DNA of 64,000 bases. Origin: a virus (Duplodnaviria > Caudoviricetes). The notes beneath the pieces are model-generated. The model ran no database searches. It was not told where the DNA came from and saw nothing but the letters and a program-made list of their open reading frames with translations. Positions 2,402-38,492 of this stretch are shown here, piece after piece; position 1 is the stretch's first letter; every line of letters begins with the position of its first letter. The stretch lies in IMG/VR virus record IMGVR_UViG_3300047160_009226, positions 1-64,000 of that record; one strand, given 5' to 3'. The position numbers and the translations under genes are program-made.

Positions 2402-2602
2402 TCAGTCGTTGCTATCTGGTGTCTCATCCTTCAAATTATTTAGATATCGACGAGTCGCTGTTTCCAGACGTCTCATGAGTGTTTGGTGTTGTGTTAAATA
2501 TTGAAGAAAATCGCGACACCAATCCTTAGATTCACGATAATTACTTGCCTCGACTCTACGATCGGCTACCCGAATTCGGGAGTATACTCGGGTTAATCTC
2601 AT
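2402..2602 (-). CDS. Small hypothetical protein with class-1 leader (MRLTRVYSRI)
   Basis: 66-aa ORF packed against the next gene; leader shared with other head-block genes. Confidence 0.7.
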   Translation of the reverse strand: MRLTRVYSRIRVADRRVEASNYRESKDWCRDFLQYLTQHQTLMRRLETATRRYLNNLKDETPDSND

Positions 2603-2656
2603 AAGAATCTCATCTTTTCGCTAAGTTTCCTGGATTCTTTCCAACAGTCTCCCGTG

Positions 2657-5125: not shown

Positions 5126-6511
5126 TCAATCGAAAAACTTACTCACATCTGGCATACCTTCCACACCGAAAACTTGATCGAACTCGTTGTCAGGCCCTCT
5201 CTGAGAAGTTCGTCGGCGGTCTGGAGCAAACTGTTGCTGGACAGGTCTACTTCTTTTTGCAGCCTGACGTCGGCGTGATTTTTGTTGAGGTGCATCCTGC
5301 CTTCTTGCAGATCCCTGACCACCCCGTGCCTGAAGAATCTCTGGCTCGTTCTCTGTATCCCAGACATTCTCCAACATGGCACGTCGCTGTTGAGCTGCAG
5401 GAGACTCACGCTCCGGACGTTTCGTCGTCGCCACACGACGTCCCGCACGATCCACCCGAGCGCCCAGAAGAGCCTCCAGGTCATCTCCCTCCAGTGGTGT
5501 CGATGCCGTGCGTTCGATGTCTTCGTCATGAACATCCAGGATCTCATCTAATGACATCCTGGCAGGTCCTGAACCACCGCTCGAACCAGTCTTCAATCGA
5601 CGATCTTGCGGCTGACGAGCCCCCGCAACCATGCGACGACCACGTCCCGCTTGTTTGGAAGCAGGGCGACGCTGTCGATTACTTACCGCCCCACCTCCCA
5701 TCGAACCGCCTCCCGTCGACGGAGTACCTAAGTCAGGAGGTGCATCTCCTTCGACATCCACCTCATCAAAGATATCTGGCTCACCAAGATCCCCCTCGTC
5801 TTCGAGTTCCTCATCTTCCATGTCCAGCATATCATCAAGATCTCCGCGATCCTCATCGAGGTCGAGAGCCTCTTCCTCGTCACCTTCGAGTTCCTCTTCT
5901 CCGAACTCGGCGTCCTCCATTTCGTCTTCCATCACATCCTGGGCATCCTCAGCTAATTCCTCTGACTCATCCAGGATCTCTTCGCCGAGTTCTTCTTCAT
6001 CGTCCGTGATTTCAGGAACTTCATCCTCGTCCTCTTCGGCCGCAACCACACGATCTTCATCCTCATCCTCGTCGTCGCCCGCAGCCAGTCGATACTTCTC
6101 TCTGGCTGCTCGGGACAGGTCCCTGGCTCGGCGAGAAGCCGTCGGAGCATGGACATCTTTCTTCGTGAGAGAATCGAGAACAGCATGGTCAGGCGTCGTC
6201 ATGACTTGCTTGGTATACGCCTGGTTGTTCGTCGGATCAGGTTGATCGGGACCGGACTCGTCCCACGGATCTTCCGATCCATCTGGTGAGGCAGCAATGC
6301 GCTTGTTCTGCTGCTGAATCGCCTGGCGACTCCTGTTGATCGCCCGTGCCTGATCCGGCCTCACTGGAGACAGTCGATGCGCTGTCGCCAGGATTTCGTT
6401 ATCCGTTGCAGAGGGGCCTAGAATGCTTTCTGCTAATCGCACATGCTCCCTCGCTCCTGCCAGTTCACTTACACTACCAAGTGTTTCCTTGGTCAGCCGT
6501 TTGCGAGCCAT
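5126..6511 (-). CDS. Putative prohead scaffold/core protein
   Basis: 461 aa with a long Glu/Asp tract and Arg-rich flanks; ends MPDVSKFFD. Lies between the protease and decoration genes and has many RxA motifs. Confidence 0.65.
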   Translation of the reverse strand: MARKRLTKETLGSVSELAGAREHVRLAESILGPSATDNEILATAHRLSPVRPDQARAINRSRQAIQQQNKRIAASPDGSEDPWDESGPDQPDPTNNQAYTKQVMTTPDHAVLDSLTKKDVHAPTASRRARDLSRAAREKYRLAAGDDEDEDEDRVVAAEEDEDEVPEITDDEEELGEEILDESEELAEDAQDVMEDEMEDAEFGEEELEGDEEEALDLDEDRGDLDDMLDMEDEELEDEGDLGEPDIFDEVDVEGDAPPDLGTPSTGGGSMGGGAVSNRQRRPASKQAGRGRRMVAGARQPQDRRLKTGSSGGSGPARMSLDEILDVHDEDIERTASTPLEGDDLEALLGARVDRAGRRVATTKRPERESPAAQQRRAMLENVWDTENEPEILQARGGQGSARRQDAPQQKSRRRQAAKRSRPVQQQFAPDRRRTSQRGPDNEFDQVFGVEGMPDVSKFFD

Positions 6512-6960: not shown

Positions 6961-8382
6961 TCAAGGATTATATCGAGCAATAAAAAAAGTAGTATACCAA
7001 TTAGTAGTGTCGTAAGTCGTATACCCAACAGCCACAATCTTACCATCGGACTGAATACCTATGCCTTCGCCTTCCTCATAAAGACCGGCAGGATCTGTAT
7101 TGAACCCATTAGTACCAAAAAGAGTGTCAAGGGAACCATCCGAATGATAACGACCTAACAAGGGTGTATAAGTAGCATTCTTATACGCGTATCCACATAC
7201 CACGATCTTACTATCTGATTGAACAGCGATCCTATAAGCAGCGTCATTAGTACCTGGAGTGGAAAAATTATATCCGTTGGTGGCAAAAGTCGTATCAAGA
7301 GAACCGTTGGAATTATAACGAGTCAATACAACGAAACCATTCGGACCATTATAGCTATAACCGCAAGCTACAATCTTGCCGTCTGACTGAATGATAAGTC
7401 CATCCAGCCAATTCTTAGACTTACCCACAGGAGTAAACGTATTATATCCCGTGGTATTAAAAGATGTATCCAAGGAGCCGTCGATGTTGTAACGGGCAAT
7501 CATAAAATTATCTGTGCCTGCATGTCCCACCGCCACTATCTTTCCATCGGATTGTCTATCAATAGCTCCAATACCGTTACTACTATCTCCAATAATATTA
7601 GAAGAAAAACCACTACCCGGTACTAGACCTGTAGCAAATGTGGTATCGAGAGTACCATTACTATTATAGCGGCCGATACCGATCGGAGTTGGAGAACCAA
7701 CACCAAAGGATGGACTGGTACTCCCGTATCTCACACCAACGATAATCTTATCGTCGGGTTGTATCATAAATGCACCATACTCTACCTTAGCACCGGCTAC
7801 CAAGTCCGGAGGAATAATCGCGGTAAAACCATTGGTTCCGAAAGTGGTGTCAAGAGTACCATCGGTATTATAACGGGCTATCACCTGTCGAGAAACCCCA
7901 GATAAAGTAGCTGATCCCAACGCTACTATCTTACCATCCGACTGAAGAGCTATAGAATCTAACGAGTCGCTCGTGCCTGGAGTGGCCGTGTTATAACCAT
8001 TCGTAGCAAAAGAGGTGTCGAAAGAACCATTGCTATGATAACGAACCAGAGCGAATCTATAACCACCTATAGAGACATAACCTGCAGCAATGATCTTGTC
8101 ATCTGGTTGAATGAGCACGGCATTAAGTCCATCCCCATTAGAAGGACTGACTCTGGAAAAACCATTGGATCCAAAACTAATATCCAGACTTCCTGGAGGT
8201 TGGGGAACAGGCACGGATGAAGGCTGATACTTATCTAGTAATACTCCAGAGATTTGCGTATAAGACATATTCGGGTTAGGATCCTTAGTATTCTGATATC
8301 TCTGCTTGATTTCGCTGAGAGTTTGCATCCTGGAACTCAAGTCAGTCCAGGAAGCAACAGGAGTATCATTAAAGGTTGCCAC
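6961..8382 (-). CDS. Delta-60 repeat 7-bladed beta-propeller protein (paralogue 1)
   Basis: Seven Q-[SP]-D-[GDS]-K-I blades, each with an ARYNxxGSLDTxF half-repeat; conserved ~60-aa N-terminal domain. Confidence 0.9.
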   Translation of the reverse strand: MATFNDTPVASWTDLSSRMQTLSEIKQRYQNTKDPNPNMSYTQISGVLLDKYQPSSVPVPQPPGSLDISFGSNGFSRVSPSNGDGLNAVLIQPDDKIIAAGYVSIGGYRFALVRYHSNGSFDTSFATNGYNTATPGTSDSLDSIALQSDGKIVALGSATLSGVSRQVIARYNTDGTLDTTFGTNGFTAIIPPDLVAGAKVEYGAFMIQPDDKIIVGVRYGSTSPSFGVGSPTPIGIGRYNSNGTLDTTFATGLVPGSGFSSNIIGDSSNGIGAIDRQSDGKIVAVGHAGTDNFMIARYNIDGSLDTSFNTTGYNTFTPVGKSKNWLDGLIIQSDGKIVACGYSYNGPNGFVVLTRYNSNGSLDTTFATNGYNFSTPGTNDAAYRIAVQSDSKIVVCGYAYKNATYTPLLGRYHSDGSLDTLFGTNGFNTDPAGLYEEGEGIGIQSDGKIVAVGYTTYDTTNWYTTFFIARYNP

Positions 8383-8443
8383 GACTTACATCCCCCAGTT
8401 GCTCTTACTGAAAAATATCATAACTCCCACTCGAATCTCTCTG

Positions 8444-9877
8444 TCAAGGATTATATCGAGCGATGAAAAAAGTACTATCATAACTAGTCTTGTCGTAAAT
8501 CGTATATCCGACAACCACAATTTTACCATCGGATTGAATACCCAGATCATAACTATAATCATAAAGACCGGGAGGATCTATGTTGAATCCATTGGTACCA
8601 AAAAGTGTGTCAAGAGAACCATCCGAGTGATAGCGACCTAACAGAGGTAGATAAGTAGTAGTCCACGCGTACCCACATACCACAATCTTACTATCTGATT
8701 GAACAGCAATACTATAAGCGTAATCATATGAAGCGGGAGTAGAAAAATTATAGCCGTTGGTGGCAAAACTAATGTCGAGTGAGCCGTTGGAATTATAACG
8801 AGTCAGTACAACCCAAGCAACTGAACCTGAACCATCATCACTCCCACCGCAGGCCACAATCTTGCCGTCTGGCTGGATGACAAGTCCTTCAAGCACATTA
8901 TACTTCTTACACACAGAAGGAGTAAGAAGATTATATCCCGTGGTATTAAAAGATGTATCCAAAGAGCCGTCGATGTTGTAACGGACAATCATGAAGTTAT
9001 CTGGACCAGTGCTTCCAACGGCTACTATCTTGCCATCGGATTGTCTAGCAATAGCTGAAATAGTGTTACTACTATCTCCAATAATATTGGAAGAAAAACC
9101 ATTGCCAGGCACTAAACCAGTGGCAAATGTAGTATCGAGAGTACCGTTACTATTATAGCGGCCAATACCGATCGGAGTCAAAGCACCACCACCAAGAGAT
9201 GGACTGGTACTTCCATATTTCGCACCAATGATAATTTTATCGTCGGGTTGTATCATGAATCCGCTGCTAAGAACCTTAGCGCCGGCTACCAAGTCTGGAG
9301 GAATAACCGCAGTAAAACCATTGGTCCCAAAAGTCGTGTCAAGGGTACCATCAGTATGATAACGGACAAGCGCCAGTCGTTGAATCCCCGATAAAGTAGC
9401 CGATCCTACTCCCACTATCTTACCGTCCGACTGAAGAGCTATAAAACTTAACGAGTCGCTCGTACCTGGAGTGGCCGTGTTATAACCATTCGTGGCAAAA
9501 GAGGTATCAAAAGAACCATTAGTATTATAACGAACTAGAGCGAATCTATTACCACCCATAGAGACTTGACCCGCGGCGATGATCTTGCCATCGGGTTGAA
9601 GTATCATGGCATTCAATCCACTCTTATTAGAATTAGAAAGACTGACTCTGGAAAAACCGTTGGAACCAAAACTAATATCCAGACTTCCTGGAGGTTGGGG
9701 AACAGGTACGGATGAAATTGGATACTTATCTGTTAATGCCCCCAATAGCTCCGTATAAGACAGATTCGATTTCGGATCCTTAGTATTCTGATATCTCTGC
9801 TTGATCTCACTGAGAGTTTGCATCCTAGAATTTAAGTCATTCCAGGAATTGATCGGAATATCATTCCAGGTCGCCAT
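8444..9877 (-). CDS. Delta-60 repeat 7-bladed beta-propeller protein (paralogue 2)
   Basis: Collinear tandem duplicate of paralogue 1 at both DNA and protein level. Confidence 0.9.
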   Translation of the reverse strand: MATWNDIPINSWNDLNSRMQTLSEIKQRYQNTKDPKSNLSYTELLGALTDKYPISSVPVPQPPGSLDISFGSNGFSRVSLSNSNKSGLNAMILQPDGKIIAAGQVSMGGNRFALVRYNTNGSFDTSFATNGYNTATPGTSDSLSFIALQSDGKIVGVGSATLSGIQRLALVRYHTDGTLDTTFGTNGFTAVIPPDLVAGAKVLSSGFMIQPDDKIIIGAKYGSTSPSLGGGALTPIGIGRYNSNGTLDTTFATGLVPGNGFSSNIIGDSSNTISAIARQSDGKIVAVGSTGPDNFMIVRYNIDGSLDTSFNTTGYNLLTPSVCKKYNVLEGLVIQPDGKIVACGGSDDGSGSVAWVVLTRYNSNGSLDISFATNGYNFSTPASYDYAYSIAVQSDSKIVVCGYAWTTTYLPLLGRYHSDGSLDTLFGTNGFNIDPPGLYDYSYDLGIQSDGKIVVVGYTIYDKTSYDSTFFIARYNP

Positions 9878-9885
9878 GATTACAC

Positions 9886-9904
9886 CTCCCGGTTACTCTC
9901 TTTG
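9886..9904. repeat. 19-bp direct repeat, copy of the protease gene 3' end (other copy 11292-11310)
   Basis: CTCCCGGTTACTCTCTTTG is identical at both positions and flanks paralogue 3. Confidence 0.85.
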
Positions 9905-9911
9905 GATCAAA

Positions 9912-11282
9912 CTACACGTAACGGGCCAGGGCAAAGACGTTCTTACCCCCTACAGTAGCCGGGCCACCGGCGACAATTCGACCACTGGACTGAACACCAA
10001 ACCCATAAATACTGTCGGACGTACCAGGGGTGGTGAGGTTGAAACCGTTCGTCGCGAAAGTCGTATCAAGAGAACCGTTTGCATTGTAACGGGCCAGGGC
10101 GAAAGCATTGTTAACCGAACCACCGGCTATAATTCCACCGTCGGATTGAATCATCAGCTCTTCAATAGAATTGTTACCACTGAAAGAAGTGATGATGTTG
10201 GAACCGTTCGTCCCGAAGGAAGTGTCCAGGGAACCGTTCGTGTTGTAACGTGCTATAACCACAGGGTAGTTACTCCCTATGGTGACAAAGCCTCCGGCTA
10301 CAATTTTACCGTCAGATTGGACCGCCAAAGCATAAATATAATCGTCAATACCGGGGGTAATGAGGCTGAAACCGTTGGTACCAAACGTGGTGTCAATGGA
10401 ACCGTTGGTGTTGTAACGGGCCAAGGCCCAAACGTAGGTACCTCCTACATAGGCGTAACCACCGGCGACGGTCTTACCGTCGGGTTGGATAGTGATGGTG
10501 TAAATTTCATCGTAAGTAGTGGGGGTAATGAGGTTGAAACCGTTCGTACCAAACGTGGTGTCAATGGAACCATCGATGTTGTAACGGGCCAGGGCGAAAC
10601 CATGATTACCCCCCACAGTAGCGGTACCACCGGCGACGATCTTGCCGTCGGACTGGATCGCCAAGTCTATTATAACAGATGCAGATGCACCGCTTGGAGT
10701 AGTAAAATTATAACCATTGGTGCCGAAGGTGGTATCAAGGGAGCCATTTATGTTATAACGGGCCATGGTAAAAGTATTACTACCCGCTATCTTGGAGACA
10801 CCACCGGCGATGATTTTGCCGTCGGATTGAAGGGCAATCGAACTAATACGATCAAAAGTGCTGGTGCCTGGAGTGGTGACGTTGAAACCATTAGTCGCGA
10901 AAGTAGTGTCAAGTGAACCATTTGAATTATAACGGGCTACGGCGAAAGTCGACTTACCGCCGACGGTGGCATAACCGCCGACGACGATTTGATCATTGGA
11001 TTGGACCGCCAGATCCTCAATAGCATCGGAAGTACCGGGGGTGATCAGGTTGAAACCGTTGGTGGCAAAAGAAGTATCAAGTATACCTTTGACTCCTGGG
11101 ACAGGGGCCATGATCGGAGGCACCTTCGGCAACTGATACCCCGTCAGCGCATTCTCAACCTGCAGGTAACACAGGTTTGGTAACGGGTCTTCAGTGTTAA
11201 TAAATCGTTGTTTTAACTTAAAACCCATCTGAATTCTTGAACCGTAATCATTCCAGGAGTTAACAGGAACATCACTGGACAT
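9912..11282 (-). CDS. Delta-60 repeat 7-bladed beta-propeller protein (paralogue 3)
   Basis: Seven QSDGKIVAGG...FALARYNxNGSLDTTF repeats; N-terminal domain related to paralogues 1 and 2. Confidence 0.9.
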   Translation of the reverse strand: MSSDVPVNSWNDYGSRIQMGFKLKQRFINTEDPLPNLCYLQVENALTGYQLPKVPPIMAPVPGVKGILDTSFATNGFNLITPGTSDAIEDLAVQSNDQIVVGGYATVGGKSTFAVARYNSNGSLDTTFATNGFNVTTPGTSTFDRISSIALQSDGKIIAGGVSKIAGSNTFTMARYNINGSLDTTFGTNGYNFTTPSGASASVIIDLAIQSDGKIVAGGTATVGGNHGFALARYNIDGSIDTTFGTNGFNLITPTTYDEIYTITIQPDGKTVAGGYAYVGGTYVWALARYNTNGSIDTTFGTNGFSLITPGIDDYIYALAVQSDGKIVAGGFVTIGSNYPVVIARYNTNGSLDTSFGTNGSNIITSFSGNNSIEELMIQSDGGIIAGGSVNNAFALARYNANGSLDTTFATNGFNLTTPGTSDSIYGFGVQSSGRIVAGGPATVGGKNVFALARYV

Positions 11283-11285
11283 GAC

Positions 11286-13481
11286 TCATATCTCCCGGTT
11301 ACTCTCTTTGTATCGAGACATAGGAACTATGGCCTTGAGCGGCTGTCCTGTGGAGACATCAGAATATTCCAGGAAACCATGCATGCGAGCCCAGAGGAAT
11401 GCGGGACGGGACACCCAAGAGACTTCCTTAAAACTGCAACTATCTTTTATGCCAGGAAGTCCACACAACTCAGATACGCGTCTTTTAATACCATTCTTGT
11501 CAATATAGTACTTGCCTAATTCGTTCTTGATATGGGTACAGTTATGTGATACAATTCCATTCGTCAAATAAGAACTACTCTCTGAATCAACGGCATCAAA
11601 AACTTCCATTTCTCCCCAAGGCTCCACTTTTACAACTTTATCAAACCACCAATCATAAGCCAGGTAGCTCCTCATTTCTTGCAGTATTCCATTTTCATCT
11701 TGAACATACTTATCCAGTAAATCAAGTACCCTCGGAAGCATTACATCAGATATCCCTTTATCTGTATCTTTCCTGACAGAATGAATCTGTCGTCTCTCTG
11801 ATGAATCAAAATCCTTTCCAAAGGATGTTCCATAAGGAACTAATTCTTTAATTTTATGGCCAGCCCTGAAAAATCCCAAGTAATCTCTTTCAATTCGCTT
11901 TGTTGTAAGTACACGTTCTAGTTTTTCTGTTTTTATTTCCGCAGAAAAACCAATATAATTTGCAAAGTTTATCCAACTCTTTGTTCCTTTAATCTCAAGT
12001 CGATACGAACGAGTAACCCCAAACGGTGTCCTCCCCACCCATCTTTTAATCTTAATGATTACACCAAATAACAAAGCAAGTTTCTTAATATCTTGGGCTA
12101 ACTTTCTATATTTTGTTCCCAAAGTAAGTCTACGAGTATTTCCTCCGGCTGATGTAATGTACCCCCCTACTCCGCCATCTGTTGTAAAAAGCCCATTCAA
12201 GAACGCCGCAATCTGTGCCCTTCCCCTCCTCCAAAGAGCCTCAGGTACACCTTCACATCTCCACTGCCCTTTCTTCCTAAAAGGAGGCAACACTTTAGTA
12301 AACTCAGGGTAGTAACTTCTTACCCGACAAAGACCCTCATTCCTCTTAACATCATTTGGAAAATCATCTGGCCCTCTAAACTCAGGGTTAACCGGGATTC
12401 CTCCCTCACTAAAAAACCGAAGCACTTTGTCTAGCGAATCAGTTTCATCTTCTGGTGACTGCCAATGGAAATATTCCGCCCATTTCTCACCGCGATATTC
12501 CCTATGCCCATCACCATAAAGATGTCCAAGAGCGTACCAAAAATCCGTTGACTCCCCACGATCCTCTGGAATTAACCCATCACAACCTTTCTTCGACAAA
12601 ACAAAATCACCTGGAATCAAATCCCATGTCATCTTCCATTGCAAACCACCTTCTACGTCCAATACCCGAAATCGATGATTTCCAGTAGAATAGATGTTTT
12701 CTCCTGAATCAGTCCTCACTCGAAAAATTTTCTTCACCCCCCTCGATATCACACCATCAAATGGGGTGTTTCCATATTCGCTCAAAACCATTCCTATACT
12801 ATTATTCTGTCTAATCTGTTCCCCGATCCTAACATACCCTTCAGAGGTAATAATTCTAGTATTACCAATCACGCAAGGCTCATCTATCCCTTCCTCAATT
12901 TTTTTGCCACATCTTGAGCATTGCGACCAAAGGATATCACAACCCATACTTATACTGTTCAAAACTCCGCCTATGATTTTTTTAACGAGCAGTGGATGTT
13001 TTTTCTTACTTGTTGCAAGAAGCACGTCAATAAATACGGTTGGGATGGGCTCACGGTGACCACTGTACTGCTTCTCTACGACCCAGGCCACAGCATCTAA
13101 TACTTTTCCTTTCGAGAATTCAGGAATAGAAACATGTTCTACGAAGTTCTCCGCCATGATAAAAGAATGATAACTCTCCAACAAAACCTGGTTCATCCAA
13201 CTATTGCCGTTGTCATTAATGTAGTGCGAATGTGGTGAGCAGATCGTATGTCCATCGTCTTCTACTTCAACACCTGCAACCGCCGTTATCCAACTTAATA
13301 AATAATCCGAAGGATTATACCTTGAAAAATCAACATTCACTTCTTTCTTAGCGACACGGCCGTTCCCTCTTAAATGACTTCGGTTCTTACAGTGCTGGTC
13401 CCATTGGTTCCAGTACCGCTCACCCGAAATCACCTGAGTCCTAAACTCTGGATGTGCAATAACTCGTCCCATACCTACCAC
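11286..13481 (-). CDS. Prohead (capsid maturation) protease with Zn-finger insertion, interrupted by an intein
   Basis: NDNGN, FVEH, KGKVLDA, SISMGC, CSRC...C(T)H and FKEVSWVSRPA motifs of HK97/assemblin-type phage proteases; extein product about 286 aa. Confidence 0.8.
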   Translation of the reverse strand: MVGMGRVIAHPEFRTQVISGERYWNQWDQHCKNRSHLRGNGRVAKKEVNVDFSRYNPSDYLLSWITAVAGVEVEDDGHTICSPHSHYINDNGNSWMNQVLLESYHSFIMAENFVEHVSIPEFSKGKVLDAVAWVVEKQYSGHREPIPTVFIDVLLATSKKKHPLLVKKIIGGVLNSISMGCDILWSQCSRCGKKIEEGIDEPCVIGNTRIITSEGYVRIGEQIRQNNSIGMVLSEYGNTPFDGVISRGVKKIFRVRTDSGENIYSTGNHRFRVLDVEGGLQWKMTWDLIPGDFVLSKKGCDGLIPEDRGESTDFWYALGHLYGDGHREYRGEKWAEYFHWQSPEDETDSLDKVLRFFSEGGIPVNPEFRGPDDFPNDVKRNEGLCRVRSYYPEFTKVLPPFRKKGQWRCEGVPEALWRRGRAQIAAFLNGLFTTDGGVGGYITSAGGNTRRLTLGTKYRKLAQDIKKLALLFGVIIKIKRWVGRTPFGVTRSYRLEIKGTKSWINFANYIGFSAEIKTEKLERVLTTKRIERDYLGFFRAGHKIKELVPYGTSFGKDFDSSERRQIHSVRKDTDKGISDVMLPRVLDLLDKYVQDENGILQEMRSYLAYDWWFDKVVKVEPWGEMEVFDAVDSESSSYLTNGIVSHNCTHIKNELGKYYIDKNGIKRRVSELCGLPGIKDSCSFKEVSWVSRPAFLWARMHGFLEYSDVSTGQPLKAIVPMSRYKESNREI
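11541..12875 (-). mobile_element. Intein (445 aa) with LAGLIDADG homing endonuclease
   Basis: Starts CVIGNTRIITSEG; block B STGNHRF; LAGLIDADG motifs ALGHLYGDG and FLNGLFTTDG; ends NGIVSHN followed by Cys. Confidence 0.93.
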
Positions 13482-13954
13482 TTCGTCAAATGAGCCGATC
13501 CATCACTGTATTTCGATTCCACTTCGTACCCTTCTCGTTCTTCCAGATATCTGGCTAACTTAGGATTAATTACCCATAATCGAGTGCGAACATTTCCATA
13601 ATGTGCGTCCTCAAAAGACTTACGTTCTTCTTCAGCGGCTTTGATCAAGTCTAATCCGATTTTTCGACCCCACCTGAACTCAGGATCAACTACGACATCG
13701 AAGCTGTAGACAAACGATACTTTAAATTGATCAAACTCATGCTCTGGTGTAATACCTATGTATGCTCCACCGACAACTCGATCTTCTATGACCGCAGCAA
13801 AACCAACGTTCTTCGTACTATCCGGCCGAATGCCTACCCTCTTGGCAATCTGATCCACCTGCTCGGCCATTTCCCAATCTTCCTCAGGATCGATGCGAAT
13901 GATCTGATACGATGCCGCAAGAAGCAACCTGGCTATTCTCATGGTGCGACCCAT
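13475..13954 (-). CDS. GNAT-fold acetyltransferase with class-2 leader
   Basis: Motif A-like VVVDPEFRWGRKIGLDLI; N-terminus MRIARLLLAAS. Confidence 0.7.
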   Translation of the reverse strand: MGRTMRIARLLLAASYQIIRIDPEEDWEMAEQVDQIAKRVGIRPDSTKNVGFAAVIEDRVVGGAYIGITPEHEFDQFKVSFVYSFDVVVDPEFRWGRKIGLDLIKAAEEERKSFEDAHYGNVRTRLWVINPKLARYLEEREGYEVESKYSDGSAHLTKW

Positions 13955-14214: not shown

Positions 14215-14808
14215 CTATGTAAAACACACCTTGATTTCTACACCGGTTCCCCACGGACTCGGATATTCCTTGATGCTGGCTTGTGGAAATGCTCGACGTA
14301 TCAATCTGTCATAAACACTTTTTCTTTCCTTGGAGTCCGCACTAAAGACAACACATCTAGGACGTCGTTTTGCTACATAACTCTTGAGCGTATTTAAAAC
14401 AACACCAAAAATCTTAATGACATAAGATCCCGTAATTTCCAACTCACTGTAAGGGTGGTAGTATAAAATTTCACGCTCCATAGTTTTGGCTTCCTGCAAA
14501 GAAATCAGTCGTCCTTCAAGAATTTCCTCATCCTCCGGTGATTTTGATCCCTTTTCTTCGATTTCCTGTCTTCGTACCTTGGACATCATTACCATCAATT
14601 CGTCATCCGTAACATTAATATCAGCAAGTTTAAACTCTACTCGAATCACTCTACCATTTTCATCATCAGGAGCAAAATTCATGACATAAGTAAAAGGACC
14701 AACATCGAACTCAACGTCAGTGCTCCCTTCATGCGACGTATACTTGACCATCTCCGCGGGAGTATTAAATAGAGCCGTTACATGTCTGTAGTCTGATGTC
14801 AGTCTCAT
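14215..14808 (-). CDS. Hypothetical protein with class-1 leader (MRLTSDYRHV)
   Basis: 197-aa ORF; leader motif. Confidence 0.75.
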   Translation of the reverse strand: MRLTSDYRHVTALFNTPAEMVKYTSHEGSTDVEFDVGPFTYVMNFAPDDENGRVIRVEFKLADINVTDDELMVMMSKVRRQEIEEKGSKSPEDEEILEGRLISLQEAKTMEREILYYHPYSELEITGSYVIKIFGVVLNTLKSYVAKRRPRCVVFSADSKERKSVYDRLIRRAFPQASIKEYPSPWGTGVEIKVCFT

Positions 14809-23385: not shown

Positions 23386-25593
23386 TTAGTGAATTCCGTT
23401 TCTTGACCGTTTTCCGTTACCGTTCCCTGAAGATTTTCGCCTTCTAGCTTCGATTTCCACCGCTTTGATTATACCCTTCACCTCATCTGGATACAGCTGT
23501 CTCCCTTGTTTTAATTCCATCTCCTCAGATTTTGCTCTCAATGCCCTCCCAACAATCAATGAAACCTCTTTATTCAGTACACGACCAGGTACAATCTGTG
23601 ATTCATTATCCCCCTCTTCCTCATGTCTAGCCAATCTCCTCGAAGCCGCAGGTGCTGGCACCGGAGCCGCCCCAGGAGTCCCTCCTAGTCCCCCAGGTGC
23701 AGCCTCACCACCGACTCCACCCGCTGCGCCCGCTTCACCCGGTGCCCCGAACATACCCCCTTCTTCCCCGGGCATGCCCATAGGTCCTCCAAACTCTCCA
23801 CCTTCACCACCACCAGCCATTCCACCCATATCACTCAGTCCACCTCCTCCGCCTACGCCCATCCCTCCGCCACCACCCACTGCCGATGCACTTGGTTGCT
23901 TACGCACCAAATGTAATCCCGCTATAACTTTATCCAGAAAATTCGTCTCATTCAAAACCTTCTGAGGAGCATCGGTTGCAGTATAAACTGCACGCGTAAA
24001 ATCGTTAAATACTGGGTCTTTAGGCCCACCGATGTCTTCCAGGATCGCTCTGGCATTCTCTTCTGGATCGATGTTGTGTAAATCTAGCAGATACCGAACA
24101 GCAAGTGATCCCTTCTGATATAACTGGAATAGTTGATCATAAACCTCTGCATTATCACGGATAGAAATCCGATTAAATCTCAAAGTAGAATGATTCCAGA
24201 GGACGTTGACCAGGGTTCGCTTGCGACGAAGCTGTCCGTCTTCTTCCTCGGAAAGAATATCCCCTTCCTCGATATCCTCTGGTTCCACTCGTGGCCAGAC
24301 GTCGATAAATTCTTTCTGGTAGTGACCCAGAGAATCAGCAACAGGTTTAAAAATATCATCCTCGACAAATTTACGCATTCGATCCCTGAATGTTAAATAG
24401 GTTGTGTTCATCATTTCTAAAGTAATGCGATTTCCAGAATAAGAAGCCTGTCCCGTGAGCATTTCTACGGTCGATCCTAATCCCAGTGCAAGATCCTGAC
24501 GGAGCAAGTTATACTCATTTTCAGTGTTGAGGAGACGGTCATTAGCTCCTACAGTTTGCCAGTTGACTTCAAAATTAGTCACGATGGGGTAGTCTACCTG
24601 TTCTAGCATAGATAGGTCGATCTGGGCCCTTAGGTCGTCCATCTGAGGTTTGCCCGTCCCGGGGGCCGTCACAATATGCTTGGGATTCATATTCCTTGAA
24701 CTGATCTGGAGGTTCGAGTTCTTGAGGTTCTCTAAACGCAACAACGTATCCATACATCTTTCTATGATGCTCTCTCCATACTCTTCATTTGGTGCGCGGT
24801 TTCTTGCGATGTGTACAACATAACTTCCTCGTCTCCAGTTCGTGTTAAGAGGCACTGCTTCTCCATAATTCAGGGCCTCTTTAAGTTCAGGCGGAATAGT
24901 ATCACCGAGTGCTTCATAGAGTTTTTCTATATCGGTATCTGCAATTAAATACATGTCCCTATCTGTTATTCTTCTCACGGCCGCAGTGTCCACAAGAGGC
25001 TTAGCAAAAAAGATAATTTCTTTTTTGCGATTAAAGGGATGCATTAGAGAGTGGCAAAATTCGACTGGAAGCACATAGACGTCATCCCATTGTTGTAATT
25101 TATTACTCCAGTTGCACCAACAATAGACGTCACCCGCAAGCCAGTATTCTCGAGAAACCTCTAACATTAAACCTAAAATATCTAATCTCTCAGACATCGA
25201 TTCATAAATTCGCGTAATCTGTCGATTCTGTCGAGGAGATGGTCCCTTCGGTGGACCTATTGTAATTCGGCTCATCGGAAGTTCTGAGTGCAACTCAATA
25301 GCTCTACCCACCATAGCGTCGTGTCTTGACCAATACCTAAAAAGGGAAAGTTTGTCAGCTCTAGATATGGTATAAAGAAATGCAGCTACTGGAGAATTGG
25401 TTGCTAAAATTCCTGGAATGGCTGACCCGGCAGGTCCGCCAAAATCCAAGACACTAGCAACACCAGCAGCTTGTCGGCGAGATGCAATGCGAGCGGTATC
25501 GGTGAGATTACGAGTAAAGACTTCCATCGTCCCTCTCGTAGCGGGGCGATCATGAATAACAGATATTGGTTTCCAATCATCTCTATCAGGCAT
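23386..25593 (-). CDS. Portal protein
   Basis: 735 aa downstream of the terminase; RYW...DAMVGRAIELHSELP, YGESIIERC, RQDLALGLG motifs; Gly/Pro-rich C-terminal tail. Confidence 0.8.
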   Translation of the reverse strand: MPDRDDWKPISVIHDRPATRGTMEVFTRNLTDTARIASRRQAAGVASVLDFGGPAGSAIPGILATNSPVAAFLYTISRADKLSLFRYWSRHDAMVGRAIELHSELPMSRITIGPPKGPSPRQNRQITRIYESMSERLDILGLMLEVSREYWLAGDVYCWCNWSNKLQQWDDVYVLPVEFCHSLMHPFNRKKEIIFFAKPLVDTAAVRRITDRDMYLIADTDIEKLYEALGDTIPPELKEALNYGEAVPLNTNWRRGSYVVHIARNRAPNEEYGESIIERCMDTLLRLENLKNSNLQISSRNMNPKHIVTAPGTGKPQMDDLRAQIDLSMLEQVDYPIVTNFEVNWQTVGANDRLLNTENEYNLLRQDLALGLGSTVEMLTGQASYSGNRITLEMMNTTYLTFRDRMRKFVEDDIFKPVADSLGHYQKEFIDVWPRVEPEDIEEGDILSEEEDGQLRRKRTLVNVLWNHSTLRFNRISIRDNAEVYDQLFQLYQKGSLAVRYLLDLHNIDPEENARAILEDIGGPKDPVFNDFTRAVYTATDAPQKVLNETNFLDKVIAGLHLVRKQPSASAVGGGGGMGVGGGGGLSDMGGMAGGGEGGEFGGPMGMPGEEGGMFGAPGEAGAAGGVGGEAAPGGLGGTPGAAPVPAPAASRRLARHEEEGDNESQIVPGRVLNKEVSLIVGRALRAKSEEMELKQGRQLYPDEVKGIIKAVEIEARRRKSSGNGNGKRSRNGIH

Positions 25594-26480: not shown

Positions 26481-27233
26481 TTAGTTATCTAGAAAACCCC
26501 CTGATTCATACTTACAAAGAACAGAGCCGCCAGCAGAGAAACCACCCCCAGCTTTAAAAGTGCTGAAAAATCCCTCTGGTTTTCCCATGTCGATATGCAA
26601 AGGACTCCGATTAATTTTCTTCTCTATCATCTCTTTATATCTATCCGAATTTTGTTTGAAAATGTAATAAAAATGGAACAGTCCCCTCTTATATGTAATC
26701 GGACGAGTATAAGAGTGTTGCCCTGTAATACCAAACATCACTTCTTGGAAAACCCACTCAGATACATCTCCTTTGTTAAGTGTCTCCCACAATTCATTGG
26801 GTTGTTTATCAAAAACCTTATAGAGATCGGATCTCCTAAAAAGAGCCAGCACTTCACCATAAACCCTGCCAAAATCCTCGGGGTAGTCCCATATAAAATT
26901 CGTCCAAAACTGACCGGACCAAGGTGGTTGGTTCGTCCTCTTAAAAAAACCCTGTAATATAACTCTTGGCTCACCTGAAAAAGTACGCTCATAAATGATT
27001 TCAGCGATCTTACCAACCACAGGACTAGACTCAATCCATTTACGAAGTTTCGCCCCAAAAGTCTGGTTCAACCAACTCCAATCAGACCATTCTCCTCCAT
27101 CGTCATCACTATCATCATCTTCATCAACGGGCGGTAACCCAGGACCACCTACATCCGTTTTAAAACGTTCCAGTGGCTTAGAACGCTCCAAGGTCATGAC
27201 AGCAATTCGTGTATAGTCGTCAGTGAGAATCAC
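26481..27233 (-). CDS. Hypothetical protein with class-1 leader (MILTDDYTRI)
   Basis: 250 aa; overlaps the terminase stop. Confidence 0.75.
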   Translation of the reverse strand: MILTDDYTRIAVMTLERSKPLERFKTDVGGPGLPPVDEDDDSDDDGGEWSDWSWLNQTFGAKLRKWIESSPVVGKIAEIIYERTFSGEPRVILQGFFKRTNQPPWSGQFWTNFIWDYPEDFGRVYGEVLALFRRSDLYKVFDKQPNELWETLNKGDVSEWVFQEVMFGITGQHSYTRPITYKRGLFHFYYIFKQNSDRYKEMIEKKINRSPLHIDMGKPEGFFSTFKAGGGFSAGGSVLCKYESGGFLDN

Positions 27234-29359
27234 CGTCTTCCACCTCGTGGAATTAGAGGATGTCCTCTTTGTGTGCGAACCAAGACTTCCTGCCGCTGTC
27301 TAGCCATCTCAGCTCGATCCCTAATGCTACTAGTCGCTGCCGTTGATGTTCTTGAAGTAATGTTAGGAGGTTGCTGCACAATCTCAGTCTGTGCCACAAA
27401 GAGTGCTCGACTTACACTACTGTATTGATCATCATGCTGCCCTTCAGTTTCAGGACACCTAAGAGCAATCTTTTTCACGGAGCCACCCGTCTCTTTGCGA
27501 TCCAGCCGACAAAGTTCACGAATCAAGGAGTCATCTATCTTCCAATCCTCAAAAGGTACAAAAATAGTAAATTGTGCTTGCTCAATATATGCAATGAAGT
27601 TACGAGCTACTTGGTCATTAAAAGCTGCTGTCATATTAACGAGTTCAAGTCCATCACGAGCTTGTGATGTCAAGTGAGACGTAATTCCATACGCATTCCA
27701 CTGATCGCCTAGCCCCTTACGCACATTCCAACGGACCCAAAGCTCATCGATATGCTTGGCGATCTTTTTAATGGAGAGAAGATCTAGTTCTTCTCGAGTC
27801 TCGTCCAGATAGTCTTCATATCCAGGGAGTCCATAACCAATCACTTCATGTAAAATTAGTCGTCCAAGTCCCTCCGCATTCATGGCAATAAGAGATATTG
27901 TCGTACGGTCACTGCCTGCTTTCAATCCACCAAGGTCAAACCCACAAAACACATCTTCGCCAGGAAGTAACCATTGATGGCTACCTGGCTCCTGACGACA
28001 ACGCTCAACGACTTCTCGCGTAAAAGCCTTTCGATACTGATCACTGTACCTGGCTTCGTATTCCTGTTCATAACCAGCCGGATCGACTGCATGGAAACTT
28101 CGAAGTGCCTTCGAGCTTAGAAGCGGATTGACCCACGGACTCGGAATGTGTAATGCCAAGGAATTAGAAAGCTCAGAATCACCATCCCAGATACCCTGCT
28201 CAACTTCATACATATACGACTCCGTGGTCAGCGGAGTCGAAACAATGATCATTAATCCTTCAGGTTCATCTGTTTCTGGATTCTTTAAATCTGAAATTCC
28301 AGGTGCTATAGCAGTAAAAATCTCCTTATCACTTGAATTCGAATCCTTGATGTGGGACATGAAGAGCCCGAACTCTTCAAGAAGCCCTAACATGATCGCT
28401 GGACCACGAGTCGCTCTAGCAGAGCAAGGATCTGCTTTAACTTTAATCCCCGACTCAGAATCCAAACCATTGTCAATGTTATAAGGAGTGTTCAGATCAA
28501 TTCGTCTAACGTCGTCGTGATCAACGAATCTTCTGAGATAAGGAGATCTTTTAATAGTCGCCCTTGCAGGTGCTAGAAGATCCTGTGCCTGAACCTTTGT
28601 CGTTGCAATAAGAGTAATAGTAATCGGTTGATCGCGTCTAGTTTGATAATACTCTTGAGGGTGATACTTCTTCAAAACCCTATAACAAAAATAAGCCGCA
28701 ATCCATTGAGCTAGTGACGATTTGGTTCCTCTGCGACCGAGCCGGAACACCACTAAATTCATCTGCCGACCAAGATTTCGTTCGTATTCATCTCTGGAAA
28801 GAGAAATCCGACAATTATCTGCTCCAGGTCCATCTCCATAGAGAAAGTCAAAGAATTCGCTTTCGTTATACGTGCCTACAATATTCTCACGAAACTTATC
28901 CCAAACTTCGATGCGACCAATAACAGCGTCTCCAGCCAACAAAGGAACTTCAGGTTCTTCATCCAGTATTACGATCTTTTTAAGTAGGTTTACCTTCCGA
29001 ACTCTAACTGCCAGATTCTCTCCGATATCCAAGTATTTGACACGTCTGAATTGATCTGGCCGAAAACATTTGAACTGCGTAGGGCTGATAACTTCCGTAA
29101 CTAAGTCATCAGATCGGTCATCTAGAGGGATGCCAAAGATAACTTTAAGAATGAATCTTTGAATTGGATACGGGTTTTCATTGAGTCCCCATTCAGCCCT
29201 CACGTATTCTATAATGTCTATTATAGATTCTTTATCTTCTACGGGCTCTATGATACTCTGTACAATTTGATCGATTTCAGAACCAGTTGCGGATAGCCGC
29301 TTCCGGTCCTGGTTTCCTATCTCTCGGAGAATATCCTCCGCACTAAAATTACCAGTCAC
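27230..29359 (-). CDS. terL: Terminase large subunit
   Basis: Walker A LGRRGTKS, motif IATTKVQA, Walker B LLEEF, coupling motif VSTP, RNase H-like CGFDLG and HDD. Confidence 0.92.
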   Translation of the reverse strand: MTGNFSAEDILREIGNQDRKRLSATGSEIDQIVQSIIEPVEDKESIIDIIEYVRAEWGLNENPYPIQRFILKVIFGIPLDDRSDDLVTEVISPTQFKCFRPDQFRRVKYLDIGENLAVRVRKVNLLKKIVILDEEPEVPLLAGDAVIGRIEVWDKFRENIVGTYNESEFFDFLYGDGPGADNCRISLSRDEYERNLGRQMNLVVFRLGRRGTKSSLAQWIAAYFCYRVLKKYHPQEYYQTRRDQPITITLIATTKVQAQDLLAPARATIKRSPYLRRFVDHDDVRRIDLNTPYNIDNGLDSESGIKVKADPCSARATRGPAIMLGLLEEFGLFMSHIKDSNSSDKEIFTAIAPGISDLKNPETDEPEGLMIIVSTPLTTESYMYEVEQGIWDGDSELSNSLALHIPSPWVNPLLSSKALRSFHAVDPAGYEQEYEARYSDQYRKAFTREVVERCRQEPGSHQWLLPGEDVFCGFDLGGLKAGSDRTTISLIAMNAEGLGRLILHEVIGYGLPGYEDYLDETREELDLLSIKKIAKHIDELWVRWNVRKGLGDQWNAYGITSHLTSQARDGLELVNMTAAFNDQVARNFIAYIEQAQFTIFVPFEDWKIDDSLIRELCRLDRKETGGSVKKIALRCPETEGQHDDQYSSVSRALFVAQTEIVQQPPNITSRTSTAATSSIRDRAEMARQRQEVLVRTQRGHPLIPRGGRR

Positions 29360-34824: not shown

Positions 34825-35499
34825 TTACTCATAGTGGGGAACTGTAATCTTGTAAGCCCTGCTTCCATTCTCCAAAGTCGATCCATGTTTTTTGGCAATT
34901 CGACCCAACACAGAGGCTTCATCGCGAGAATTCAGTTGGCCTTTATATGCGTAAATATATGTCGCTGTCTTTCCAGAAGAATTAGGTGCAACCGTAAAGT
35001 CTACTCCCAGATCATCTAGCTCGTTCTCAATTCGAGAAACTCGTTCAGTGGCTTCTTGTTCCGCTTCCAAAGTGTTGGCCATCCGATCCAATCGTAAAGC
35101 CATACCTCGAAGATTGCTCGCCTCACGAGGAATCTCCTTGCCCAACCCTTCTAAGTGGTCAGAAATGCGATCCAGAGCCTTGCCCGATGCAAATCGATCC
35201 ATGCGGTTACCGTTGACATTCGAGTTTTCTGGCGACTTGACTTCGAAATAGTGTGCCCCCTGGCTCTCGGCAACATCAAGAGCCTTCCTGAAATTCACCC
35301 CTCGATCGACGGCCCAACGTTTGAGGTCGATCAACAACTCCTTGAGAGACTCCTGCGGATTCGCCGTGGCGTGATAACCACCGGCATATGTAGCCAAGAG
35401 CTTGTCGATGTTGGCAACCTGCGCCGTCCGACGTCCTGCCGAACGATCGACGGCCCGACTACTCCGCAACTCTCTTGTAGTTTCTTTGACGTTCATCAT
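34825..35499 (-). CDS. Modular putative internal head protein
   Basis: 224 aa; RRTAQ and RFASG linkers; helical LDRISDHLE...LDRMANTLE module. Confidence 0.8.
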   Translation of the reverse strand: MMNVKETTRELRSSRAVDRSAGRRTAQVANIDKLLATYAGGYHATANPQESLKELLIDLKRWAVDRGVNFRKALDVAESQGAHYFEVKSPENSNVNGNRMDRFASGKALDRISDHLEGLGKEIPREASNLRGMALRLDRMANTLEAEQEATERVSRIENELDDLGVDFTVAPNSSGKTATYIYAYKGQLNSRDEASVLGRIAKKHGSTLENGSRAYKITVPHYE

Positions 35500-38492
35500 A
35501 CGGTGATCCCATCAATGAGATCCTTCGATGCTTGAACCACCCCAGACACCAATCTTCGCACGATAAGACCCGCCTGTCGAGGTCTCTGGAGAGTAAACTC
35601 GGTGGTTCGGTTCTCCAAGATGCCATCATTGACCTCAACAGTCGCGTAACGACCACGAGGTGAATCATTTATTCTTGAGAAAAGAATCGATCCCACAGGC
35701 ATCGGAAGATTTTCACGGTCTACCACCGATGCCTGAATCTCAACAGAATCGTCGTAATCGCGAGCCTCGATCGAATATCGGCCACCGTTCCACTTGCCTG
35801 TGCCGGATGCCTGCCGAAGAAGTTCCGATCGAAATGCACTCCAGAGAGATGCCAGACGACCTGCCTCCGGATTCTCCCTGAGCTTCGGACGATCGACGTC
35901 CTGAGCAGTCATTGTCTCTTGCAAGGGTGCTTTAGATTCCTTGTAAAAACCCCCAGCGCCATCCGCTCCAACCCCATCCTGATCACCCACGGTAGGCTCA
36001 GGTTTCAATGGGGCATCACCCTGAGTTCGTGCCCGACGATTCCTACGGGATGATGTGGCATGCTGTCCCTGTTGACCCGGAACCATCTCGCCGTTCTGCC
36101 CACCCTGACCATTCTTCAACATGCCCATGGTACGATCGTAGTCGGACTTGAGAATGTGAGCCACTGCACCACGGTCGTACTTACCCTGAAGAGCGCTGTC
36201 AACCAACTTCAATGTGTTGGTCCAGTCGATGTCCTTGACACCCTTGCCTTCACCAGCAGATCGATGACTGGATACACCGAGAGAAGGATCCAACTTTCCC
36301 TTTAATGCATCCTCTACTGCATTGCGAGCCGCTTGTTCTTGCATACCATACTTCTGTATCAACAAATTCATCACCCAAACAGGATTTTCTCCTTCCTTCA
36401 ATCTCCTCCTTACATCCCTCCTAGCAAAATCCCATTCATCAGCTAAACGTCGAGATGCACCACGACTCGCATATTGCAAGTTCGTATCCACATCGCTGTC
36501 GTCGAAGTGTCGGACCTTGACCTCAGCTCCATCTTCCTTGAGTTCTTTCATCTTTTTGTCATATTCATCCTTGGACTTGCAAACGACCTTTTCCCAATTG
36601 TCACCGGGATACTTGAAAGAGATCTCACATCGTGTGAAATCTTCCGTAGCCCTTCGCCAATGAGAAAATTTTCGACTCTCATATTCTTCGGGGAACAGGC
36701 GTTCCCGGACCTCAGGTGGGAGTTTTCTTCCGGGGAACGCTTCCTCGTATGTCGGCAGTGGCGAATCCTCCCCATCCCCGAATTCAACACCCTCACTGGG
36801 ATATTCAAGGGGACCGGGATCAAAGGGCAATGCCTTATCATCCTTCTCATTTCTTCTGATCTTTGCCTTGCGAGACGATTCCCGAGTCAAGGACGTGGAC
36901 TTAGCTGGATCCGTACCAAAGAAGGAAAGTGTGCCGTGCCCAAACTGATCGTGATAGTCATCGACTTCGTTAGACTCATCACCCGCTACTGGAAGAGTCG
37001 CCGTCGAAAGAGCATCATACGAAAGTTCATCAGCAGCGGCCATGAGCCTGCGTGCTGTAATGGGATCCAACCGACGAATCTCTGATGCAACCTTTCTCAA
37101 TATGCCTGCTTTCTGTCGAGAAGCCCCCCTACGCGAAGCTTCAGGGCTCTCCCTCAACTTAGGACGTGTGACATCCTGAGCTTCCATCGGAATCTTCAGG
37201 GGAGAACCGGGAATCACTGTCGCAGGCGCTCCACCACCAGTCGGCTGCTGTTCATCGTCGATGGCTCGATCCTTGCCGGTATCCGGGAGAGCAACGGTCG
37301 TCCATCGTTCAAAGTAATCGTTGCCCTTGAGACCGAGATCAGGATCAGGCATCTTTTTGCCTGTAAATCCTGTCATCAGATCCATCTTAGCACGACGACG
37401 TGTTGAAATATCGTTTCTCATACCAGAAGCTCCTTGATTGATCCCTCGATATGAAGACAATGATCCATAATGTCGGCGAACAGATTTTGGATTTCGTGGT
37501 GGCGGTTTTATACCAGACTCGTCAACGTCACAGCCACCCGGATTAGAAAAGTTGTCAAGAGCATCCATAGCAGATTGTTCGCTAGAGAAAGGTCCGTAGT
37601 TGGTACAGTCCTTAGGATCGTAAGCATATTCAAAGTTACCGAGTTCCATATACCATTTTTGATCAGTTGCCTTCCAAATTAAACATTGGCGTTGTTGGCT
37701 AGCAACCCGTCTTCGAGATGCACCCTTACGATTTCCGAGCATCTGATTCGGCTGTGGATCTTCATATCGAGGGTCGGTTGGCTTCTCCATAAGTTTTCTC
37801 ATTTTGTCCTGAATCTTAGGAAGCGATCGACTCGCTTCATCATGACTAACATACCCCAGTGCTTTCGCCGCATCTTCGACGGTTACCTCTTCAGGATCCA
37901 TACCACTCATAATAAAATCATGAGCCGCCCTTTCAATGTCAATCCAATCCCACTTATCCATCTTAGCACGACGACGTGTTGAAATATCGTTTCTTATGCC
38001 AGAAGCTCCTTGATTGATCCCTCGATATGAAGATTCCACGGGGATCTCCCAATCATCGTGCTTACCGGTATAACCTCTCGCACCAGGCTGATTAGGAAAA
38101 AGATCCATGTGTGTTAAGTGCTCCCACTCACGAGGACGAGTTCCTGGCTCTTCAGAGTAGTTTTCAACGAACTCCTTCAACTGTTCAAGTAGTGCGATCG
38201 ATTTATCTCGCCTCGCCTCTTTTTTTTCTTTCTCTTTTTTGGGATCCCACAAATTTTTGAATGGTTTTCCAGGAACCACCTCTCCCTTATAACCTTGTTC
38301 CTCAACAATCTCCCATTTCTTTTCATTCTTTATGTGATAGTCAATAGTGTCCAGCACCTGCTGCTTCTTATCATCTCGAATCCTGCCGGTTCGCCAAAAT
38401 TCATCAAGAGCACCAAAACTAGGGTAAAAGTGTCTCGCTACAAATCTGGCTTCATCCAGAGAAAGCATTTTAGTTCCTTCAGACAGCTTCAA
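35496..38492 (-). CDS. 998-aa polyprotein-like putative internal head protein
   Basis: Many short modules separated by ASRR/RxA linkers; internal 78-bp duplication. Confidence 0.88.
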   Translation of the reverse strand: MKLSEGTKMLSLDEARFVARHFYPSFGALDEFWRTGRIRDDKKQQVLDTIDYHIKNEKKWEIVEEQGYKGEVVPGKPFKNLWDPKKEKEKKEARRDKSIALLEQLKEFVENYSEEPGTRPREWEHLTHMDLFPNQPGARGYTGKHDDWEIPVESSYRGINQGASGIRNDISTRRRAKMDKWDWIDIERAAHDFIMSGMDPEEVTVEDAAKALGYVSHDEASRSLPKIQDKMRKLMEKPTDPRYEDPQPNQMLGNRKGASRRRVASQQRQCLIWKATDQKWYMELGNFEYAYDPKDCTNYGPFSSEQSAMDALDNFSNPGGCDVDESGIKPPPRNPKSVRRHYGSLSSYRGINQGASGMRNDISTRRRAKMDLMTGFTGKKMPDPDLGLKGNDYFERWTTVALPDTGKDRAIDDEQQPTGGGAPATVIPGSPLKIPMEAQDVTRPKLRESPEASRRGASRQKAGILRKVASEIRRLDPITARRLMAAADELSYDALSTATLPVAGDESNEVDDYHDQFGHGTLSFFGTDPAKSTSLTRESSRKAKIRRNEKDDKALPFDPGPLEYPSEGVEFGDGEDSPLPTYEEAFPGRKLPPEVRERLFPEEYESRKFSHWRRATEDFTRCEISFKYPGDNWEKVVCKSKDEYDKKMKELKEDGAEVKVRHFDDSDVDTNLQYASRGASRRLADEWDFARRDVRRRLKEGENPVWVMNLLIQKYGMQEQAARNAVEDALKGKLDPSLGVSSHRSAGEGKGVKDIDWTNTLKLVDSALQGKYDRGAVAHILKSDYDRTMGMLKNGQGGQNGEMVPGQQGQHATSSRRNRRARTQGDAPLKPEPTVGDQDGVGADGAGGFYKESKAPLQETMTAQDVDRPKLRENPEAGRLASLWSAFRSELLRQASGTGKWNGGRYSIEARDYDDSVEIQASVVDRENLPMPVGSILFSRINDSPRGRYATVEVNDGILENRTTEFTLQRPRQAGLIVRRLVSGVVQASKDLIDGITV
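37380..38033. repeat. 78-bp direct repeat (37380-37457 and 37956-38033), 2 mismatches
   Basis: Encodes SSYRGINQGASG[IM]RNDISTRRRAKMD twice, 576 nt (192 codons) apart. Confidence 0.92.

Follow-up and report, generated by a model that had tools for sequence, protein, structure and literature searches.

The DNA described here comprises the first 64 kb (positions 1 to 64,000, hereafter the window) of IMG/VR virus record IMGVR_UViG_3300047160_009226, a single contig of 200,689 bp from an uncultured soil jumbo phage of about 200 kb that is not T4-like. The G+C content is 44.7% and nearly all genes lie on the minus strand. Among the head genes lie genes for otherwise unrelated accessory proteins that start with the same short leader peptide, designated class 1, which probably serves as a tag for loading these proteins into the head. 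A different, Arg-rich leader (class 2) occurs on other proteins of the same genome and head block.

Tagged genes and the head-morphogenesis block

The minus strand of the window encodes the terminase large subunit (27230..29359; phrog_2, 4.6e-11), a 735-aa portal protein without intein (23386..25593; phrog_16240, 1e-19) and a prohead protease split by a LAGLIDADG intein (11286..13481; Pfam LAGLIDADG_3 and Intein_splicing matches in the intein part). The tagged set therefore sits in a head-morphogenesis block. The terminase shares only about 24-26% identity with its counterparts in an uncultured 485-kb phage, a Tunturiibacter jumbo phage and jumbo phages of soil and cyanobacteria. The major capsid protein was not located in the genome using the capsid-like proteins of the relatives as queries.

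Relatives were collected as nine loci around homologues of the portal and four around homologues of a conserved WYL-like core protein of the block (19137..19661, minus strand), which served as anchor; the anchor search used a three-sequence alignment, the nine-sequence version being too diverse for a pattern search. Scans of IMG/VR with the portal and with the WYL-like anchor gave no matches. The core genes follow a conserved order: terminase, 26468-type, portal, 22128-type, 19676-type, 18206-type, 14193-type and protease.

Ten proteins of the window, all encoded on the minus strand and named here by their start coordinates, carry a class-1 leader. Five of them are ORFans in which the leader is followed by an early Glu: 2602 (66 aa, 2402..2602; MRLTRVYSRI, first Glu at 18), 20055 (124 aa, 19681..20055; MDLSSEFSYI, Glu18; same start in the orthologue L011:765), 20355 (94 aa, 20071..20355; MKLTNHATIL, Glu16) and its paralogue 20673 (91 aa, 20398..20673; MKLTKYMTIL, Glu17), and 46380 (130 aa, 45988..46380; MQFTEQFTRV, Glu18), the sole member outside the head block. 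The 78-aa protein 18446 (18210..18446; MKLSNAYTRV, Glu16) has kept its leader in the orthologues of L008, L010, L012 and L013. Larger bodies are found in 14808 (197 aa, 14215..14808; MRLTSDYRHV, Glu19), in 19120 (218 aa, 18464..19120; MLLTMEYRNV, continuing to KE and then FTGIT, with a C-terminal ParB_N domain) and in 27233 (250 aa, 26481..27233; MILTDDYTRI), whose GTG start overlaps the terminase stop. The 111-aa ORFan 23195 (22860..23195; MKFTKKYSIV) lies between the portal gene and a GIY-YIG homing endonuclease gene. Its orthologue L009:6460 (MRLTPKFSVV) has no adjoining endonuclease, and the idea that tagged genes travel with such endonucleases was dropped.

Pfam and PHROGs recognise only the ParB_N domain of 19120 and a weak DUF6934 match in 14808; they return nothing for the other eight tagged proteins or for the family of 27233. 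The starts of 20055, 20673 and 23195 are internal ATGs of longer open frames, each with an upstream Shine-Dalgarno-like purine run. Database gene calls miss the leaders of at least three of the ten proteins (P0058 starts at Met5, P0083, corresponding to 14808, at Met20 and P0090, corresponding to 27233, at Met13), and the L008 orthologue of 18446 is called from an internal GTG. Because the upstream peptide is conserved across relatives, the longer forms are taken as the real ones, and with its leaders omitted from the gene calls the system is invisible in deposited proteins. Two tandem copies of a 14808-type tagged gene (MKLTSDYKRVTA and MRLTSDYKRVTG) are present at L010:4352-5487, the first hidden inside a longer called open reading frame (ORF).

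The class-1 leader and its exchange for other leaders

The preliminary description had listed ten N-termini with a shared leader. All ten peptides are encoded at the minus-strand starts given there, and eight belong to class 1; the two loose ones, 38492 (TTG start) and 2398, score -8.3 and -6.5 on the class-1 matrix, values reached by 5% and 3% of random internal positions, respectively. Two members, 19120 and 46380, were absent from that list. The start-anchored motif reads M-[RK]-L-[TS]-x-x-[YF]-[ST]-R-[VI]. The matrix covers residues 2-12 and, which avoids circularity, was trained only on 16 leaders from the related metagenomic phages L008-L013. By this matrix the ten proteins of the window rank 1-9 and 13 among the 208 N-termini of the genome: 14808, 2602, 18446, 23195, 27233, 20355 and 20055 at ranks 1 to 7, then 46380 at 8, 20673 at 9 and 19120 at 13. 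Five members outscore all 58,511 internal 11-mers, and in a ranking of every possible start in the 200-kb genome (4,732, counting both strands), seven of the top eight are starts claimed in the preliminary description. The reciprocal matrix, built from the window only, finds 16 matches in 43 kb of subclade loci, two in 138 kb of outgroup loci and none in unrelated loci. An off-frame ORF of 50 aa at genome position 86025 (score 14) lies inside another gene and was taken as chance. A degenerate class-1 tag on the core proteins starting at 18206 and 6511 (R-L-T-[KR]-E...) was considered and dropped, the scores being -20 and -24.

Codons at the conserved leader residues vary within the genome, and orthologue pairs use different codons at 38 of 64 identical leader residues. 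Selection therefore acts on the peptide and not on the DNA or RNA.

Window and L008-L013 together provide 27 instances of the leader, the first 26 of which were used for residue frequencies. The leader consists of a head of 10-12 residues, M-[RK]-L-[TS]-x-x-[YF]-[ST]-R-[VI]-x-[VF], and a Ser/Gly/Arg-rich spacer of 5-9 residues, usually followed by the first Glu. Within the head, M1 and [RKD]2 are followed by L3 (21/26), [TS]4 (26/26), [YF]7 (21/26), [ST]8 (22/26), R9 (11/26), [VIL]10 (25/26), a variable residue and [VF]12; residues 3, 4, 7, 8 and 10 carry most of the signal. The leaders are polar after residue 12 and contain neither a hydrophobic run nor Cys, and thus do not qualify as Sec, Tat or lipoprotein signals. 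Glu is lacking at residues 8-15 and present at 16-21 in 21 of the 27 leaders, compared with 38 among the remaining 198 proteins of the genome (Fisher 2.5e-9), and at least one member of 11 of the 12 body families has this pattern. The Glu at residues 16-21 is a possible cleavage site. Position P3 of the putative site is not Leu or Ile and not consistently Ala, Ser or Gly. R-x-A was tried as a cleavage motif and rejected, its enrichment being weaker (9/27 versus 17/198) and inconsistent across families.

The 27 instances are distributed over 12 body families of 65-349 aa, between which no BLASTP similarity is found after residue 22. The downstream domains, reported earlier as unrelated, are so in general, with the exception of 20355 and 20673, which are paralogues at 33% identity. 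In an AlphaFold2 (AF2) model of 27233, built with 18 homologues (mean predicted local distance difference test score, pLDDT, 77.9), the alpha/beta body (residues 45-246) is predicted with confidence, and the leader and an acidic disordered linker have pLDDT values of about 40-50. These low values make the tag an appendage outside the predicted fold of this protein. Foldseek comparison of the model with PDB and BFVD gave no match below E = 0.001.

Synteny with L001-L009 places all class-1 genes of the head block in gaps between core genes; the content of these gaps varies by phage, and the tagged set differs between the window and L008-L013. Neither tagged genes nor the class-1 motif were found in L001-L007 (portal identity 46-63%), where the class-2 leader is present, and class 1, confined to a subclade with at least about 67% portal identity, is thus an addition specific to that subclade. 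In families with orthologues, conservation of the leader equals or exceeds that of the body; for 14808 and its homologues, identities are 67-92% in the leader and 30-57% in the body.

Two of the bodies occur elsewhere behind other leaders. Close homologues of 19120 start with MLLT[KR]ES.NVV...KE followed by FTGIT, and homologues with 35-58% body identity have a leader M-x-F-K-x-W-L-E-x-K-x before the identical FTGIT junction. The gene of P0081 of this ParB-like family (MVTFKQFIEAK) has genes for a Peptidase_S77 protein and a Gp23-type capsid protein a few genes away, and an ART-PolyVal (ADP-ribosyltransferase-family) protein in the same locus starts with MKFRVWFE; in another locus at least four proteins start with M..FK.W[LI]. 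The 27233 family comprises 21 homologues in an exhaustive HMMER search, and a poly-Asp stretch and the body are common to all aligned sequences. Its leaders are of class 1 in one homologue (MILTDSYTRIAV...), of the Arg-rich class 2 in two (e.g. MKRLRRIAVALLEE) and T4-like in about 15 (e.g. MEFKKWFEAV). These homologues with other leaders at a fixed junction indicate separate histories of leader and body, and two unrelated families show the same pattern, in which the first ten or so residues follow the phage lineage and the body is retained. The genome of the window also encodes, outside the window (103253-104245, minus strand), a 330-aa protein starting with MRFREFFERS. No other N-terminus of the genome resembles the leader of T4-like type (M-x-F-[KR]-x-[WF]-[LF]-E) found in other lineages, and this likeness may be chance.

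Class 2 is a basic amphipathic helix with the motif R-L-A-R-x-L-L within the first 20 residues, at the same N-terminal position as class 1. It is carried by an AdoMet (S-adenosylmethionine) decarboxylase (20843..21346, minus strand; MTYTRVNRLARRLLA) and a GNAT acetyltransferase (13475..13954, minus strand; MGRTMRIARLLLAAS). A class-2 pattern finds a set disjoint from class 1, with zero class-1 members among its matches. Like class 1, the class-2 leader stands on unrelated proteins, and it replaces class 1 in 27233 homologues; it differs in its presence across the wider clade (L001-L007) and in its cargo, which is mostly recognisable enzymes. The decarboxylase begins with six residues that are similar to the end of the class-1 head (Y-T-R-V).

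Proposed function and alternatives

The capsid targeting sequence (CTS) of T4 is the textbook case of a short peptide by which a phage head can be loaded with arbitrary proteins, and T4 particles are engineered with it. Its sequence is MKTYQEFIAE (10.1101/2021.01.19.427310); its 10 residues are enough for packaging, residues 4 and 7 deciding targeting and residues 8 and 10 cleavage (PMC9026906), and it is the only common part of the internal proteins of T-even phages (PMC3012670). Class 1 shares this architecture: a tag of about 10 N-terminal residues is the sole common part of accessory proteins that are otherwise unrelated, change fast and are encoded within or close to the head genes (in T4 IPI, IPII and IPIII; Mullaney & Black 1996, reviewed in PMC9026906 and PMC3012670), a modular arrangement of short shared tag and hypervariable cargo. 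A conserved aromatic stands at residue 7 in both, Glu is found where a propeptide could end, and in T4-type phages a CTS-like leader stands before homologues of two tagged bodies. The M-x-F-K-x-W-L-E leader of these homologues repeats the aromatic-x-x-aromatic-aliphatic-(x)-Glu layout of the T4 CTS, and the piece swapped in by T4-type lineages looks like the one tag with experimentally proven capsid loading.

The two tags differ in sequence. The T4 CTS scores -16.7 on the class-1 matrix, a value that 30% of random 11-mers reach, and only Met1, the basic residue 2 and the aromatic residue 7 coincide. The class-1 module extends over 16-21 residues to the Glu, compared with 10 in T4, and the protease here is not a detectable S77 enzyme. 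In T4, Asp at the cleavage position prevents cutting and leaves targeting intact. The code was described earlier as independent of that of T4, a fair statement given the lack of sequence similarity between the two tags.

Two further systems invite comparison. In the giant phages SPN3US and phiKZ, N-terminal propeptides of head and ejection proteins are cut by gp245 or gp175 at A-x-E (PMC10052503). These are likewise short (20 residues in SPN3US gp45, 24 in gp225), Glu-ended and located on head proteins of jumbo phages, and a targeting role was proposed for them by analogy with T4 (PMC10052503); they have no common 10-residue head motif across unrelated proteins, and P3 of class 1 is not consistently Ala, Ser or Gly. 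The cargo-loading peptides of encapsulins, short terminal peptides as well, dock diverse cargo inside a shell with the HK97 fold. Their typical place is the C-terminus and they bind directly to the shell protein, whereas the class-1 tag is N-terminal and belongs to a tailed phage with a candidate scaffold and a protease.

We consider it moderately probable that class 1 is a portable N-terminal sorting tag which directs accessory proteins into the assembling prohead, where they would be packaged together with the DNA. The earlier reading as a capsid-targeting code is supported, at the level of comparative inference, by the variable slots in the head module, the swaps with a T4-CTS-like leader and the neighbourhood of P0081. 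Because relatives of two tagged proteins carry a T4-style tag at the identical spot, class 1 is likely a new head-loading label. In the proposed mechanism the head of the tag would bind a component of the prohead core, and the cargo would be enclosed while the shell forms. The prohead protease would then cut after or near the Glu and free the cargo inside the head, and the cargo (the ParB-like nuclease-fold protein and the small ORFans) would act, like the internal proteins of T4, at an early stage of the next infection.

The candidate for the core component is a hyper-acidic 461-aa protein (5126..6511, minus strand; isoelectric point 4.4, largely low-complexity) with very long Asp/Glu runs and an Arg-rich tail, encoded just downstream of the protease, the usual place of a scaffold gene. 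By its acidity and scaffold-like gene position it is a possible scaffold or core protein and a possible receptor of the tag. Its orthologue in L005 starts with MKLTKDSLRIAISV and reaches a class-1 matrix score of 10.8, though L005 is otherwise without the tag.

Several points weigh against such a function. Cleavage is its weakest link: the protease has no match in the Pfam family search, hhalign gives a probability of 0.3% against an S77 protease and thus no detectable kinship with T4 gp21 (S77), and the nearest language-model clusters, which are leads only, are S78, S77 and S80, with a leaning to S78, for which we know of no established Glu-specific cutting. A PDB sequence search with the protease returned noise only, and its AF2 model (pLDDT 39.5) was discarded. 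The window of residues for Glu was picked after viewing the data, which makes the p-value given above generous; Glu16 of 27233 is Gln in homologues with other leaders, and both members of the 23195 family lack the early Glu. The tagged protein 46380 is encoded among replication genes. That the M-x-F-K-x-W-L-E leader would be a working CTS is suggested by its resemblance to MKTYQEFIAE and by the gene neighbourhood. The phage is uncultured and no near relative was found among 50,697 deposited phage genomes at the DNA or protein level; these deposited genomes also gave no match for the 567-aa head-block protein, P0094 or P0081.

Alternatively, such a tag could serve as a docking handle by which interchangeable accessory proteins are mounted elsewhere on the virion, for example at the portal or neck, on the outer capsid surface or on the tail. 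The location in a structural block suits any virion destination, and the weak Foldseek rows obtained with the 27233 body are neck or tail-terminator proteins, but with template modelling (TM) scores of at most 0.23 and a root-mean-square deviation above 9 Å these rows carry no weight. As the same bodies elsewhere carry leaders like the T4 CTS, which addresses the prohead core, and the Big_2 surface-type protein of the block (14813-15574) is without tag, we regard this explanation as unlikely. Slightly less credit still is given to a stability or timing signal, that is, a degron or a recognition peptide for a protease or chaperone of host or phage, without effect on destination. N-terminal peptides of the Met-basic-hydrophobic type are known ClpX-type recognition signals, and the conserved spacing of the Glu could equally mark processing outside the capsid. 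Such a signal leaves unexplained the clustering of the tagged genes between portal and prohead protease, the replacement by a CTS-like leader in the T4-type head module and, host proteases being shared, the restriction to one phage subclade.

Common ancestry offers another explanation: a single small head-block gene would have given rise to all tagged genes as extremely diverged paralogues, with the shared N-terminus as a relic without separate function. In its favour are the true paralogues 20355 and 20673, the tandem 14808-family copies in L010 and the many small ORFans in neighbouring slots, for which duplication in tandem is plausible. It is nevertheless very improbable as an account of the whole set: the 12 body families are without detectable similarity, one of them having a ParB_N domain, the two exchanged bodies have homologues in other lineages with wholly different leaders at the same junction, and the leader is more constrained than the bodies. 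Bacterial and phage genes in general often encode Lys or Arg at residue 2, and several members are without a clear Shine-Dalgarno sequence and apparently translationally coupled, as would suit a signal for translation initiation or in the nucleic acid, or a chance N-terminal composition. This last reading is already largely refuted by the tests on codons and enrichment: different codons are used freely at conserved residues, the signal resides mostly beyond residue 2, and the enrichment over internal positions and other N-termini is extreme.

Returning to the sorting tag, a more speculative extension, which we hold to be possible and no better than that, is that the lineage has two orthogonal loading codes, an older clade-wide Arg-rich helix and a younger class-1 tag of the subclade, each with its own receptor in the prohead core, which would sort cargo by copy number, position or ejection order. 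In that case the three-way swaps would imply plug-and-play use of head-loading tags even between very distant tailed phages, and a cargo gene changing lineage would need to alter only its first ten codons. New here are the second, unrelated tag in one phage and the three-way swaps of leaders on the same bodies. If class 1 works like the CTS, it would be a second such leader, with no sequence in common, in a phage group without a cultured member, coexisting with a further leader class in one virion. It would also provide a cheap sequence marker for the packaged proteins of these soil jumbo phages, probably with first-wave or anti-defence functions. Because leaders have been exchanged in nature on two protein families, fusions offer a direct test of the idea.

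Neighbouring genes and inteins

Homing endonucleases of the GIY-YIG/NUMOD3 type are present in six copies genome-wide, three of them in the window on the minus strand (22103-22867, 29383-30282 and 61765-62148). The GIY-YIG gene at 22103..22867 lies between the tagged gene on the portal side and the 22128-type core gene, and another copy immediately upstream of the terminase gene. The window also encodes an HNH endonuclease (47475-48167). Between the portal gene and 23195 lies a strongly hydrophobic ORF of 56 aa (23200-23370, minus strand), in which two membrane spans were predicted by eye.

Three tandem DUF5122 beta-propeller genes (6961..11282, minus strand) with 42-78% mutual identity form an insertion that separates the protease gene from the scaffold-like gene; these paralogues have a common N-terminus of their own (type ...W-N-D..NSWND), and L010 has one such gene at the equivalent place. 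The products of two neighbouring genes at 14813-16488 (minus strand) have a common C-terminal domain of 121 residues (79% identity). The product of the downstream gene has a Big_2 Ig-like domain in addition, and both products are without a leader.

Intein-less orthologues of the protease, 256-294 aa long, are encoded in L001-L007 and L010. A second intein-bearing protein, at about 193001-195289 of the genome, is 34% identical to the protease across the intein part. The portals of the relatives P0002, P0005, P0010, P0018, P0026, P0027, P0029 and P0046 have an intein inside the gene, with products of 1030-1280 aa and matches to Hint or Intein_splicing.

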